DNA of 64,000 nucleotides from a virus (taxonomy: Duplodnaviria; Caudoviricetes): positions 19,176-83,175 of the IMG/VR virus record IMGVR_UViG_3300032301_000913. One strand, 5' to 3'. The translations under genes and the position numbers were made by a program. How positions within the stretch are numbered: the stretch's first letter is position 1; each line of letters begins with the position of its first letter. The notes beneath the pieces are model-generated. The model saw only the letters and a program-made list of their open reading frames with translations. It was not told where the DNA came from and did not search any database. Positions 8,977 to 13,956 of the stretch are shown one piece after another.

Positions 8977-9648
8977 ATGCAAGTCGCTCTCACCATCGCA
9001 TCCGGAAACTCTAAAACCGGTGTTATCCCAACTTCCATAAGTGAGCAATCATCCTGCGCTCCATCTTGTCCCTTTATTAATAAGGGTTGCTATGCAAAGT
9101 ATGGTCACCAGGTTATACACTGGCGCAAAGTTTCTAATACTGAGCGCGGTGTAGTTTGGGAGGAGTTTGTTACACTGATTCGCAAACTTTCCAAGGGTCA
9201 ACTATGGCGCCACAATGTCGCGGGTGATCTTCCCCACAATAATGGTGAGATTGATTATCTCAAACTGCGCCAACTGATTGATGCTAACCGTGGGCGTAAG
9301 GGTTACACTTACACACACCACACGCTAAATGATCACAACCGCGTGTGCTTAGAGAATGCAAACTCTATGGGGTTCACGGTTAACGTTAGCACCGAATCTA
9401 TTGAAGATGCTGACCGTGTGATGACTGAGTATAACCTACCCGCCACGGCAGTTGTTCACTCTGAAAAAACTGACCGATTCTATACAACAGAATCCGGTCG
9501 GAAAGTTATCACCTGCCCCGCTGCACTTTTCCCAGGTAAGGTAACCTGTGCAACTTGCGGTTTGTGTCAAGTAGCGGACCGCAAGTTCATTGTAGCGTTC
9601 CCCGCACATGGCACCGCTAAAAAGACAGTCAACCAGATCGTAGGTTGA
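8977..9648 (+). CDS. Cys-rich, radical-SAM-like phage protein (resembles DUF7227/gp88-like families)
   Basis: NSKTG..P, C-x3-C-x6-C, WRHNVAGD, YTYTH, CPA...TCATCGLC, FPAHG. Confidence 0.6.
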   Translation: MQVALTIASGNSKTGVIPTSISEQSSCAPSCPFINKGCYAKYGHQVIHWRKVSNTERGVVWEEFVTLIRKLSKGQLWRHNVAGDLPHNNGEIDYLKLRQLIDANRGRKGYTYTHHTLNDHNRVCLENANSMGFTVNVSTESIEDADRVMTEYNLPATAVVHSEKTDRFYTTESGRKVITCPAALFPGKVTCATCGLCQVADRKFIVAFPAHGTAKKTVNQIVG

Positions 9649-11048: not shown

Positions 11049-11056
11049 AGTATTAA

Positions 11057-11096
11057 AATCTCGACTAGATTGCGCCCATACAATCTCGTCGAGATG
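11057..11096. repeat. palindromic operator-like cluster 3
   Basis: AATCTCGACTAGATT 11057-11071 (identical to 4097-4111); CTCGTCGAG 11085. Confidence 0.8.
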
Positions 11097-11138
11097 CGCA
11101 CACATTTCACACATTAACATCTCGAACACATTCACACA

Positions 11139-11297: not shown

Positions 11298-11302
11298 ATT
11301 AT

Positions 11303-11550
11303 AAAGTATAAAGAATTAAGAATGAATCAATAGTAGTTCTTAATTCTTTATACTTAATCCTGAGTATTAAGAATTACACAGGATTGAATGTAAGTTATTG
11401 TCAGTGGTGTGGTTTATTCTTTACATTCAGTCCTGTCTAATTCTTTATACTTAGTGCTGTTTAATTCTTTATACTTAGTGCTGTTTAATTAGATTTAATC
11501 AGTGCTGTTTAATTCTTTATACTTAGTGCTGTCTAATTCTTATTACTTAG
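11303..11550. repeat. AT-rich iteron-like array: five tandem 24-bp units plus inverted copies
   Basis: consensus TGCTGTTTAATTCTTTATACTTAG at 11431, 11455, 11479, 11503, 11527; inverted copies around 11303-11321 and 11360-11394. Confidence 0.9.
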
Positions 11551-11561
11551 TGGGATCCGGG

Positions 11562-11591
11562 AGGGTACAGTAGCGGGTGCCGATCTGTCAA
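11562..11591 (-). promoter_or_regulatory. leftward promoter TTGACA-N18-TACCCT pointing into the repeat array
   Basis: reverse complement of 11562-11591. Confidence 0.5.
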
Positions 11592-11660
11592 GATGTGATC
11601 GATCAGAATATCTTATCTAATAAGTTTCGATTTTTGTATCAAGGCGATACAGTTTACCGG

Positions 11661-11689
11661 TTGACCGATTCGGCATTGCCGCCTAATCT
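11661..11689 (+). promoter_or_regulatory. sigma70-type promoter TTGACC-N17-TAATCT
   Basis: -35 at 11661-11666, -10 at 11684-11689. Confidence 0.7.
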
Positions 11690-11696
11690 AGGTTCG

Positions 11697-11804
11697 AACC
11701 TAGAAAACCTAATAAATGATCGGAGCGGTGCCGGAGGCATCGCTAGCAGCGGGTCGGGCGGGTCTACCGTTGCGCCGGTCATTTATTTACATAAATTCTA
11801 GGTT
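11697..11804 (+). ncRNA. candidate structured RNA or leader (three-way junction on a long interrupted stem)
   Basis: AACCTAGAA/TTCTAGGTT, 13-bp, 9-bp and 7-bp helices; begins at the predicted TSS. Confidence 0.6.
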
Positions 11805-11843
11805 TAGTTTAGTTTACACTCTGTCCTTTCAGTTCTTTTCACA

Positions 11844-12131
11844 ATGGATCTGCAAAACGCTTCCAAGGTTGTCGAACTTGACGCCAAGATTAAGAAACTT
11901 TCTGAGCAATTTGCTGCTCTTAAAGTGGATTTAATGCAGCAAATGATCGCTGAGAATCTTAGTGAGATTGTCATTAAGAGAAAAAAAGTTGTACTCTGCC
12001 ATCGCCAAAATAAAGACTTTGGCGCTGAAATTGCAGCAGCAGAGTTACAAATTAAAGCAGAGAAAAAGAAATTAGAAACTCTTGGAGAGTTTACAATCTC
12101 CAGCGTCACGAACTTCATTCAAGTTCGCTGA
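11844..12131 (+). CDS. coiled-coil hypothetical protein
   Basis: ORF track; helical, charged N-terminal half. Confidence 0.75.
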   Translation: MDLQNASKVVELDAKIKKLSEQFAALKVDLMQQMIAENLSEIVIKRKKVVLCHRQNKDFGAEIAAAELQIKAEKKKLETLGEFTISSVTNFIQVR

Positions 12132-12137
12132 CAATCA

Positions 12138-12159
12138 AGGGGGCGATCTTTCGCCCCCT
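12138..12159 (+). other. intercistronic GC hairpin without U-tract
   Basis: AGGGGGCGA/TCGCCCCCT. Confidence 0.6.
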
Positions 12160-12189: not shown

Positions 12190-12423
12190 ATGTTTCTTTA
12201 CAATCAAGGTCGCAACTTTTCTTCCGTTATGGTTAATCCAAACGGCGGTTACATCGTTATGGCAACTAATATCGCCAAAGGTGTGACGATTGAAGTATCA
12301 AATGTCATCGAATCTATTGAAACTGCTACATTGAGGGCGATGCGATTTGCCGGTCACAGTGTAAATCAACCGCTCGATCCTGATGCAGTTGAGCAATACC
12401 TTTCAGAACGATTAGGTTTCTGA
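12190..12423 (+). CDS. hypothetical protein
   Basis: ORF track. Confidence 0.7.
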   Translation: MFLYNQGRNFSSVMVNPNGGYIVMATNIAKGVTIEVSNVIESIETATLRAMRFAGHSVNQPLDPDAVEQYLSERLGF

Positions 12424-12486: not shown

Positions 12487-12768
12487 ATGCTTTCTACTTT
12501 CGACCAAAACTTTCAGAGAATTCGTGACGTTGAACAGTTTGCACTTAACGTCCTAGATTCTAAACTTAAGCGGGACGTTGATCCTATCGGTGAGGCAGAA
12601 TATCACTGCCAGGGTTATGCTGGCGAGGGCAATCCGCCGCACGATGTCATAATCGGTTGCCGAGTTAGTGTAACGCAGAAAGGCAAGTTACGCTCTGATT
12701 TTAAGTTGAATGGCAAGCGGATTGCCTGCCACAAGATTACACTTAGACTCGGAGAATTAGGAGTCTGA
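12487..12768 (+). CDS. hypothetical protein
   Basis: ORF track. Confidence 0.7.
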   Translation: MLSTFDQNFQRIRDVEQFALNVLDSKLKRDVDPIGEAEYHCQGYAGEGNPPHDVIIGCRVSVTQKGKLRSDFKLNGKRIACHKITLRLGELGV

Positions 12769-12770
12769 GT

Positions 12771-12805
12771 TACACTTAGGGGGAGACAATCTCCCCCCTT
12801 CATTC
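12771..12805 (+). repeat. 35-bp exact repeat, intercistronic hairpin, copy 2
   Basis: identical to 12426-12460. Confidence 0.85.
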
Positions 12806-13256: not shown

Positions 13257-13430
13257 ATGAAAAAAAATTCCGGGGAAATTTTTGAGTCCGTACAGGTCGA
13301 TCCAATCAGTGGCGACTATTACCTCATAATTCCGGAGAGTATCGCCAATGAACTCTCATGGTACGAAGATACTGAAATTAGTTTTAAAGTCGAAGGAAAT
13401 GATGTTATCCTCACCGAACGCGCAGATTGA
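13257..13430 (+). CDS. AbrB/MazE-like small DNA-binding protein, 57 aa
   Basis: read manually: YYLIIPESIANELSWYEDTEISFKVEGNDVIL fits the SpoVT/AbrB pattern. Confidence 0.7.
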   Translation: MKKNSGEIFESVQVDPISGDYYLIIPESIANELSWYEDTEISFKVEGNDVILTERAD

Positions 13431-13455
13431 CAATTCATATATAATGAGGTATGAT
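13427..13455 (+). promoter_or_regulatory. host-like (middle-type) promoter TTGACA-N17-TATGAT
   Basis: near-consensus sigma70. Confidence 0.8.
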
Positions 13456-13479: not shown

Positions 13480-13956
13480 ATGGAGTTGATTGAACGAATT
13501 AATAAAAATCTTCAAGATATTCTCAATGAAAATCATTGTTGGATATGGAATGGAACAAAAGATAAAAATGGTTATGGAATAATTTCACATAATAAAAAAT
13601 TATTTAAAGTTCATCGTTTACTGTATGAAATTCATTATGCAGAACCATTAAAATCATTACATTGCCTTCACAAATGTGATAATCCTTCTTGTGTAAATCC
13701 ATTACACTTACTTGCAGGAACAAACTTAGATAATGTAAGAGATAAAGTCAATAAGGGAAGATGTTATACTGGATACCAAAAAGGTGAAAGTAATGGATCA
13801 TCTAAACTCAAAGATGCTGATGTAATTGTAATTAGGAAGTTGTATAAGAGCAAAAATTATACAACTATTAAACTTGGAAAGATGTATAAAGTTCATCGCT
13901 CCACAATTTCTCACATCGTAAACAACAAAACTTATACGCATTTATTAGAGAATTAA
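13480..13956 (+). CDS. free-standing HNH homing endonuclease with C-terminal HTH
   Basis: CWIWNG..DKNGYG...HR...LHKCDNPSCVNPLHL..GT..DN. Confidence 0.9.
   Translation: MELIERINKNLQDILNENHCWIWNGTKDKNGYGIISHNKKLFKVHRLLYEIHYAEPLKSLHCLHKCDNPSCVNPLHLLAGTNLDNVRDKVNKGRCYTGYQKGESNGSSKLKDADVIVIRKLYKSKNYTTIKLGKMYKVHRSTISHIVNNKTYTHLLEN

Follow-up and report, generated by a model that had tools for sequence, protein, structure and literature searches.

The leader region studied here lies in a stretch of 64,000 nt (the window) that forms part of an 83-kb IMG/VR record from a T4-like cyanomyovirus, in which the gp25 and gp6 baseplate wedge genes and the genes for giant structural proteins are found from 15.8 kb onward. 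The sole named relative of the leader region is Synechococcus phage S-SRM01 (Kyanoviridae), from a freshwater reservoir, which shows 71% identity to positions 11579-12141 of the window, the similarity beginning at 11579. An early message of this cyanobacterial virus opens with a conserved, folded RNA of about 110 nt; it is strand-specific and backed by covariation, it starts at the predicted start site of a conserved promoter, and it heads a small operon of early genes. The features of the locus are as follows.

11579-11660, plus strand: conserved upstream control region with palindromes (71% identity to S-SRM01; alignment of 39 homologs)
11661-11666, plus strand: -35 hexamer TTGACC of the early promoter (sequence; TTGNNN kept in most homologs)
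11684-11689, plus strand: -10 hexamer TAATCT (in 39 of 41 homologs TAnnnT precedes GAACC by 6-9 nt)
11696-11707, plus strand: boxA GAACCTAGAAAA, 11/12 identical to the cyanobacterial rrn spacer boxA GAACCTTGAAAA taken from literature sequences; 5' strand of P1
11708-11714, plus strand: D4-like block CCTAATA, by comparison with host D4 CTGCATA; internal loop and first P2 pairs
11697-11705/11796-11804, plus G11696.U11805, plus strand: helix P1 (minimum free energy, MFE, fold)
11711-11723/11775-11787, plus strand: helix P2, 13-14 bp, enclosing P3 and P4 (9 of 13 pairs change on both sides; length conserved)
11724-11732/11736-11744, plus strand: hairpin P3, variable in loop and length (4 of 7 pairs covary, 98% paired; also found independently by RNAalifold)
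11746-11752/11767-11773, plus strand: hairpin P4, with a 14-nt loop (3 of 6 pairs covary, 100% paired)
11753-11766, plus strand: P4 loop, near-invariant GUCGGGCGGGUCUA, with a possible 3-bp tip helix (RNAalifold predicts P4 and the tip helix)
11788-11795, plus strand: P1/P2 internal loop, 3' side, carrying a conserved AUA (columns T..ATA invariant in the 41-sequence alignment)
11796-11805, plus strand: 3' strand of P1, UUCUAGGUUU (fold; P1 present in separate MFE folds of 39 of 41 homologs)
11806-11843, plus strand: unstructured pyrimidine-rich spacer up to the start codon (fold, alignment)
11812-11820, plus strand: conserved GUUUACACU within this spacer (alignment)
11844-12131, plus strand: first ORF (95 aa), in every member of the myovirus family the gene that comes first behind the RNA
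12190-12423: second ORF of the leader operon
12487-12768: third ORF of the leader operon
12779-12797, plus strand: GC-rich, terminator-like hairpin directly after the third ORF
13427-13455: near-consensus promoter TTGACA-17-TATGAT, just upstream of an HNH endonuclease gene (13480-13956)

The early promoter is of the sigma-70 type (TTGACC-17-TAATCT), ends 6 nt before GAACC and predicts a start site at about 11695-11697. It had escaped our automated promoter scan, whose rule needs 9 of 12 matches, and had been proposed at 11661-11689 by an earlier, sequence-only reading of the window. Comparison with the upstream regions of 39 homologs bore the proposal out, since both hexamers are conserved (TTGNNN, and TAnnnT, often TACAGT with TGn) while the spacer varies between 17 and 18 nt. 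The distance from the -10 hexamer to GAACC is 6, 8 or 9 nt in the homologs. Where it amounts to 8-9 nt, P1 gains GCG/CGC pairs upstream of AACC, and where the -10 lies 6 nt away P1 mostly goes without this extension. The length of P1 thus tracks the position of the -10 hexamer and keeps the predicted 5' end level with the end of the helix, in support of the start site as well as of a helix at the 5' terminus. The earlier reading had also pointed to a perfect 16-bp palindrome over the start site (CTAGGTTCGAACCTAG, 11688-11703) and to an alternative pairing through it. The palindrome is real but it is not conserved: among the 41 homologs only the window and one further sequence (L138) have it, and both an operator and an alternative pairing at this place were rejected for that reason.

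Upstream of the promoter, the region of about 80 nt that nearly all homologs conserve contains the palindromes GTCAA..TTGAC and ATCAGC..GCTGAT, and a third inverted repeat at 11636-11650, of the form GGTATC-N4/5-GATACC, that reads GTATC-N5-GATAC in the window. At the equivalent position most homologs show GTA-N8-TAC, centred near -52, which we take to be the NtcA-box consensus; the spacing in the window is N9. Further upstream lies an AT-rich 24-nt tandem array of six copies (11410-11555), with inverted copies at 11300-11395. Homologs have tandem repeats of three unrelated kinds at the position of the array (CACTGTTTGAGTT..., GATACGGATCCTGAT and GCTGCTGGTTAGGTATT). S-SRM01 retains the leader RNA and carries an HNH endonuclease gene just upstream of the conserved region; the 560 nt that were read there showed no tandem array. 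The repeats at 11300-11555 could be an origin or an array of regulator-binding sites. Palindromes of the type ATCTCG(A/T)CGAGAT are repeated at 11054-11131, upstream of the iterons, and are present in S-SRM01 too.

The 108-nt core of the leader (11697-11804) folds with an MFE of -49.4 kcal/mol (z -6.67), a value that none of 200 dinucleotide shuffles equalled. Energy folding had been suggested as a check by the sequence-only reading, and the three-way junction with four helices drawn there was reproduced exactly, at the coordinates listed above, by the sequence and by the MFE folds. That reading had further argued from several G-U pairs that the plus strand is the functional one. Consistent with this, the minus strand folds far worse (z -1.94), and matches of a covariance model (see below) to the reverse strand reach about 20 bits versus 109 bits for the window copy. 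P1 and P2 stack into about 25 bp. The near-invariant parts of the RNA are the 5' strand of P1, the AUA of the P1/P2 internal loop and the 13-15 nt loop of P4 (GUCGGGCGGG...), and the junction nucleotides vary among homologs. A resemblance to the glnA motif or to small ribozymes had been discounted, and a search of the window against all Rfam 15 families (including glnA, manA, wcaG, PhotoRC and the small ribozymes) agreed, giving nothing at the gathering score; when relaxed to E 10 it returned just one spurious lncRNA match (16 bits, E 2.7).

Homologs were collected with a DNA pattern derived from the first two of them and by searching with the downstream protein. The element was recovered in 32 viral and 63 metagenome contigs, which left 41 distinct homologs after removal of duplicates and chance matches, from S-SRM01-like freshwater and estuarine cyanomyoviruses. 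A covariance model built on the hand-drawn structure scored these 41 homologs at 80-147 bits and found no match in 816 kb of unrelated phage and bacterial control DNA. One exact pattern was also run over 185,579 prokaryote species genomes, with no model-confirmed match; the five pattern matches obtained, in GC-rich proteobacteria and actinobacteria, were all negative with the covariance model and were therefore dismissed as chance. Searching with the P4 hairpin alone revealed no new contexts. The leader RNA is present in a single copy per genome, the complete S-SRM01 genome included.

In the model alignment, which was fitted to the structure and on which the pair statistics rest, 87.6% of the pair cells held standard pairs, compared with 39-45% when the 3' partners were slid by 1-3 columns, and 18 pairs changed on both sides, a number reached by none of 500 shuffles. 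No pair cell of P4 was broken in this alignment. P1 was weaker (77% of cells paired, one covarying pair), its 5' strand being invariant. Because the alignment had been fitted to the structure, RNAalifold and separate MFE folds were used as independent checks. RNAalifold recovered both P3 and P4, the latter with a 3-bp helix at the tip of its loop; on a MAFFT alignment it recovered P4 alone, and P3 together with P4 after model alignment. It missed P1 and P2 because indels shift their 3' strands, and for that shortfall we relied on the hand structure, the covariance model, the controlled pair counts and the separate MFE folds. The latter contained P1, P2 and P3 in 39 of the 41 homologs, with P4 either canonical or alternatively paired; in the remaining two, an extra hairpin pushes the 3' strand of P1 past the sequence cut used for folding. 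P3 varies among homologs by lengths not divisible by three, which is evidence against a coding role. The covarying homologs that the sequence-only reading had asked for are these 41 sequences, with compensatory changes in P2, P3 and P4. The leader is an RNA family with covariation support, outside Rfam and with an invariant 14-nt loop. Fremin et al. 2023 (PMC10690425) list thousands of unnamed candidates from IMG/VR, and this family may be one of them.

The genes that follow the RNA are small and variable. The operon had been described as one of four genes, which is right only loosely: three ORFs precede the hairpin at 12779-12797, and more small ORFs precede the promoter at 13427-13455. Between GAACC and the ATG there is a constant interval of 137-159 nt in most homologs, the longest being 179 nt. 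The first ORF belongs to a family of about 96-109 aa with three or four subtypes (MDLQ.., MELQ.., MTILVGQVE.. and MIITDP..), just 14-23% identical to each other, which are exchanged among identical leaders, and the genes after it are shuffled between phages. Since one RNA type joins every ORF subtype, and the first ORF of a further phage lineage of about 80 kb (see below) is unrelated, the RNA goes with the promoter and not with the protein. One subtype gave sub-threshold matches to Mu Gam-like end protection (phrog_253, E 2e-4) and to Sipho_Gp157 (Pfam, PHROG), and a profile search of the first ORF against the PDB returned nothing. Its AlphaFold model consists of a helix, a beta-hairpin, a helix and a beta-hairpin (pLDDT 79, pTM 0.39), and had no Foldseek match in the PDB and BFVD. 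The N-terminus of the protein is acidic or neutral.

As judged by comparison with published sequences, the first 12-20 bases of the leader are a copy of the boxA of the host rRNA operons, a point that the sequence-only reading had missed. The boxA of the cyanobacterial 16S-23S spacer is GAACCTTGAAAA, followed by the D4 block CTGCATA (PMC8461337, after Iteman et al. 2000); the Arthrospira rrn spacer has been printed as GAACCTTGAAAACTGCATAG (PMC7699214), and a primer named 'antitermination box A' for the Synechococcus/Prochlorococcus clade is the reverse complement of GAACCTTGACAACTGCATAG (PMC9769826). Over boxA and D4, the region covered by the comparison, the phage leaders read GAACCTTGA(A/C)AAC(T/C)GAATAG. 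The exact host boxA is found in 27 of the 41 homologs, and the other 14, the window among them, differ from it by one mismatch. The host 20-mer is matched at 17-19 positions by 29 of the 41 (best 19/20), and both host variants of boxA, GAAAA and the picocyanobacterial GACAA, occur in phages. The D4-like block is CTGAATA or CCGAATA in most homologs; the window copy has its boxA mismatch and a weaker D4. Other boxA-like 12-mers are not enriched in the window. A boxA is expected soon after a promoter, and this one stands at the predicted start site, behind conserved -35 and -10 hexamers of which the latter is 6-9 nt upstream. Partition-function folding predicted an unpaired fraction for boxA of 95% in the nascent RNA until about nt 100, and of 22% in the full leader, the rest being paired in P1. 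The identity of the 5' strand of P1 with the host boxA (and D4) changes the most likely mechanism; given that the leader begins with this copy, the virus probably borrows the host antitermination machinery for its early genes.

The same signal recurs in other phages. In a scan of IMG/VR, the exact host boxA-D4 19-mer was found in 45 other viral contigs (30 distinct sequences), none of which had a 23S start or spacer tRNAs nearby, and which are therefore not fragments of host rrn operons. In 26 of these 45 contigs a common hairpin, CTCGACTCTCC..GGAGAGTC, is present 30-60 nt upstream of boxA; this arrangement recalls the order of the host, a boxB helix followed by boxA. One contig of this class matched the T7-like cyanopodoviruses S-CBP3, S-CBP4, S-RIP2, KBS-P-1A, S-SBP1 and S-TIP37, within about 550 nt of the left genome end in records that begin at that end. 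In S-CBP4, TTGACA-17-TATGGT is followed after 9 nt by GAACCTAGACAACCGAATA, and its boxA (GAACCTAGACAA) is one mismatch from the host form, with a D4-like block after it. The geometry from promoter to boxA is the same as in the window, and the RNA behind boxA differs. At least eight further contexts of the 19-mer were noted, a few of which may lie in coding sequence. A third setting is the lineage of about 80 kb, in which the boxA block and the P4 hairpin are kept on a different, longer scaffold ahead of an unrelated first ORF. In a complete phage of this kind (80,498 bp, with terminal repeats), boxA and P4 head an ORF-free, apparently structured leader of about 400-500 nt that sits inside or beside the terminal repeat. 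This phage and the window (8977-9648) share a phrog_2554 protein. Searches against phage isolates gave no match for the divergent subfamily, and nothing relevant in blastn with the host boxA 37-mer.

On the strength of this analysis we propose that the element may act as a leader of the nut and rrn kind, through which NusB/S10 of the host would be loaded onto RNA polymerase, a reading that we hold to be somewhat more probable than not. The early promoter, being of the sigma-70 type, would be transcribed by the host RNA polymerase, and the transcript would begin, within 0-3 nt, with the copy of the host boxA and the D4-like block, followed by the three-way junction of P2, P3 and P4, with boxA as the predicted 5' strand of the closing helix P1. 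During the first 100 nt or so, the single-stranded boxA would bind the host NusB-S10 (NusE) pair, together with NusA and NusG, and the polymerase would thereby become an rrn-type elongation complex, faster and resistant to pauses and terminators, for the early operon; the P4 hairpin with its invariant loop is a putative second protein contact. Once the 3' strand of P1 emerges, the P1-P2 stack of about 25 bp would close and bury the 5' end, which may protect the RNA, and the stack could form a processing stem of the RNase III type like the leader-trailer helices of pre-rRNA.

The proposal follows the analogy of the lambda nut sites, the T7 early promoters and the rrn operons. In E. coli, boxA is necessary and sufficient for assembly of the rrn antitermination complex (rrnTAC), a second boxA set lies ahead of 23S, N-modified complexes are terminator-resistant and elongate at about twice the speed, and in a current model the NusB-held boxA tethers the leader strand of the leader-trailer helix (its 5' strand) near the RNA exit channel for as long as the trailer has yet to appear (PMC10250234). 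Some points do not sit easily with the proposal. NusB-S10 binds single-stranded boxA and the phage boxA is paired in the finished fold, so that P1 could equally mask it. To our knowledge, cyanobacteria lack Rho; with a Rho-less host and a short operon, in which the first terminator-like hairpin comes after about 1 kb, it is not evident why antitermination should be needed. The copy in the window, moreover, departs from the host boxA at one base and has the weaker D4, and P1 covaries at a single pair. The cyanobacterial 'boxA' was named by homology, and we found no functional test of it in the literature. The most conserved part of the RNA, the P4 loop, falls outside what a boxA explains; its conservation in two phage lineages suggests a conserved host partner.

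Comparison with known systems helps to place the leader. In common with the cyanobacterial 16S-23S boxA-D4 it has the 12-nt boxA, identical in most copies, and a nearly identical D4 (at most 19/20), with both host variants of boxA mirrored in the phages and a long closing helix that, like the leader-trailer helix, encloses a folded RNA. The two differ in that the phage boxA is at the predicted +1 of an mRNA and not in pre-rRNA, itself forms a strand of the closing helix, and encloses an 80-nt junction instead of rRNA. With nutL and nutR of lambda (boxA and boxB, with N and NusA/B/E/G) it shares a promoter-proximal boxA, a hairpin with a conserved loop and then the first early gene. Unlike those sites, its boxA equals the host rrn form, the hairpin is some 45 nt from boxA inside a three-way junction, and the host is a cyanobacterium without Rho; an N-like arginine-rich protein, the hallmark of a lambda-type nut site, is not evident, the first ORF being without a fold match. 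The put RNAs of HK022 are likewise cis-acting structured RNAs behind early promoters, and the leader, compared with them in sequence and structure through Rfam alone, would similarly modify the polymerase; put, however, acts without Nus factors and has no boxA. For T7, PMC3709561, citing Savalia et al. 2010, places a boxA antitermination element behind the early promoters A1-A3. The likeness lies in a lytic phage having a boxA of host type behind early promoters that the host polymerase reads, and the T7-like cyanopodovirus S-CBP4 has the same layout, whereas the phage studied here is T4-like and its boxA is embedded in a covarying structured RNA. That phages use boxA behind their early promoters has been established with lambda and T7 in E. 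coli. A literature search of a limited collection gave no report of boxA use in cyanophages, and we know of none in any T4-like phage.

Several other explanations were weighed against a Nus-loading leader. The element might serve stability or processing only, the flush 5' helix shielding the early mRNA from RNases that depend on the 5' end and/or an RNase III site in P1-P2 releasing an RNA of about 100 nt, with boxA a relic of the capture of a host rrn spacer. The way in which the 5' end follows the base of P1, the length of the P1-P2 stack and the pairing of boxA in the finished leader of this family all fit this explanation, and T7 early leaders do carry RNase III sites. A relic, however, would not keep the host 12-mer intact in 27 of 41 copies that have otherwise diverged, with P2-P4 free to change, and would not be met again behind the promoters of other phages, where the RNAs that follow are unrelated; a simple hairpin would suffice for protection; we therefore regard this explanation as unlikely. 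An abundant early RNA could also act as a decoy that titrates NusB/S10 from the host rrn operons and so aids the shutdown of host ribosome synthesis, for which an exact host boxA on the first RNA from an early promoter, in a stable structure, would be well suited. Yet in the mature fold boxA is buried in P1, and would therefore make a poor sponge for NusB/S10; each genome has one copy; and placement in cis, right ahead of the genes, in three phage lineages better fits a role in cis. These considerations leave a decoy improbable. Even less probable is that promoter and transcript belong to a replication origin, in the way that the early transcripts of T4 oriE prime DNA synthesis, in spite of the iteron array with inverted copies immediately upstream (11300-11555), the tandem repeats of three unrelated kinds that homologs hold at the same place, and a position 4.3 kb upstream of the gp25/gp6 genes that recalls that of oriE, 1.7 kb upstream of gene 6. 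The region has no homology to repEA/repEB, S-SRM01 keeps the RNA although the 560 nt read there showed no array, an R-loop is disfavoured by so stable a self-folded RNA, and the identity of boxA would be left unexplained.

The suggestion of the sequence-only reading, a riboswitch or aptamer leader sensing a small molecule, drew on the compact three-way junction, to which can be added the constant length of P2, the conserved P4 loop and an AUA bulge that suggest a tertiary contact. It fared poorly: there is no Rfam match even at E 10, the junction nucleotides, where a ligand pocket would be sought, vary, and no expression platform is seen in the form of a terminator or sequestration of the RBS or start codon, the 3' spacer and the AUG being unstructured; the genes downstream encode small proteins without a coherent pathway, and are not metabolic. 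We now consider a riboswitch highly improbable. The same low standing is given to an operator for the first ORF, whose product of about 100 aa would bind the leader and autoregulate or would act on P4 as an N-like factor. Throughout the myovirus family the ORF lies next to the RNA, at a distance that does not change, and in lambda the first gene after nutL is N. Against this, identical RNA types are joined to ORF subtypes of only 14-23% identity, the 80-kb lineage keeps boxA and P4 with an unrelated ORF 400-500 nt away, and the protein has neither an arginine-rich motif nor a match to an RNA-binding fold.

A broader form of the Nus-loading proposal may be put forward tentatively, at rather less than an even chance. 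At least three unrelated cyanophage lineages (T4-like, T7-like and 80-kb) would begin early transcripts with the host boxA-D4, copies of which are exact in many members and have one mismatch in others; in the family studied here it would be part of a miniature 'pre-rRNA', made up of boxA, a helix like that of leader and trailer, and a folded cargo in which the invariant P4 loop recruits a further host factor, so taking over the rRNA machinery of a Rho-less host. If true, the virus would commandeer the transcription, chaperone and processing machinery of rRNA for its early programme. Cyanophages shape global picocyanobacterial populations, and their early transcription is poorly understood. The role of boxA and the Nus factors in Rho-less cyanobacteria would become tractable through a compact, single-copy element of 110 nt, and the culturable pair of S-SRM01 and Synechococcus sp. 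KCZYC6, which carries the leader, makes rrn-type elongation complexes and their viral exploitation approachable.

As to expression, one metatranscriptome contig (151 nt), from a relative, runs from within the 3' portion of the leader into the beginning of the ORF and shows no ends; it is a weak hint of expression, with carry-over of DNA possible. Conceivable further likenesses are of the complement of the P4 loop to 16S rRNA 1399-1407, of the leader to a CRISPR repeat, and of a GU-rich tract to the boxC of E. coli. We also observed that in most homologs (L135 type) the 5' strand and loop of P4 read GGG-N4-GGG-N2-GGG-N1-GGG, a canonical G-quadruplex pattern, of which the window has only three G-triplets.
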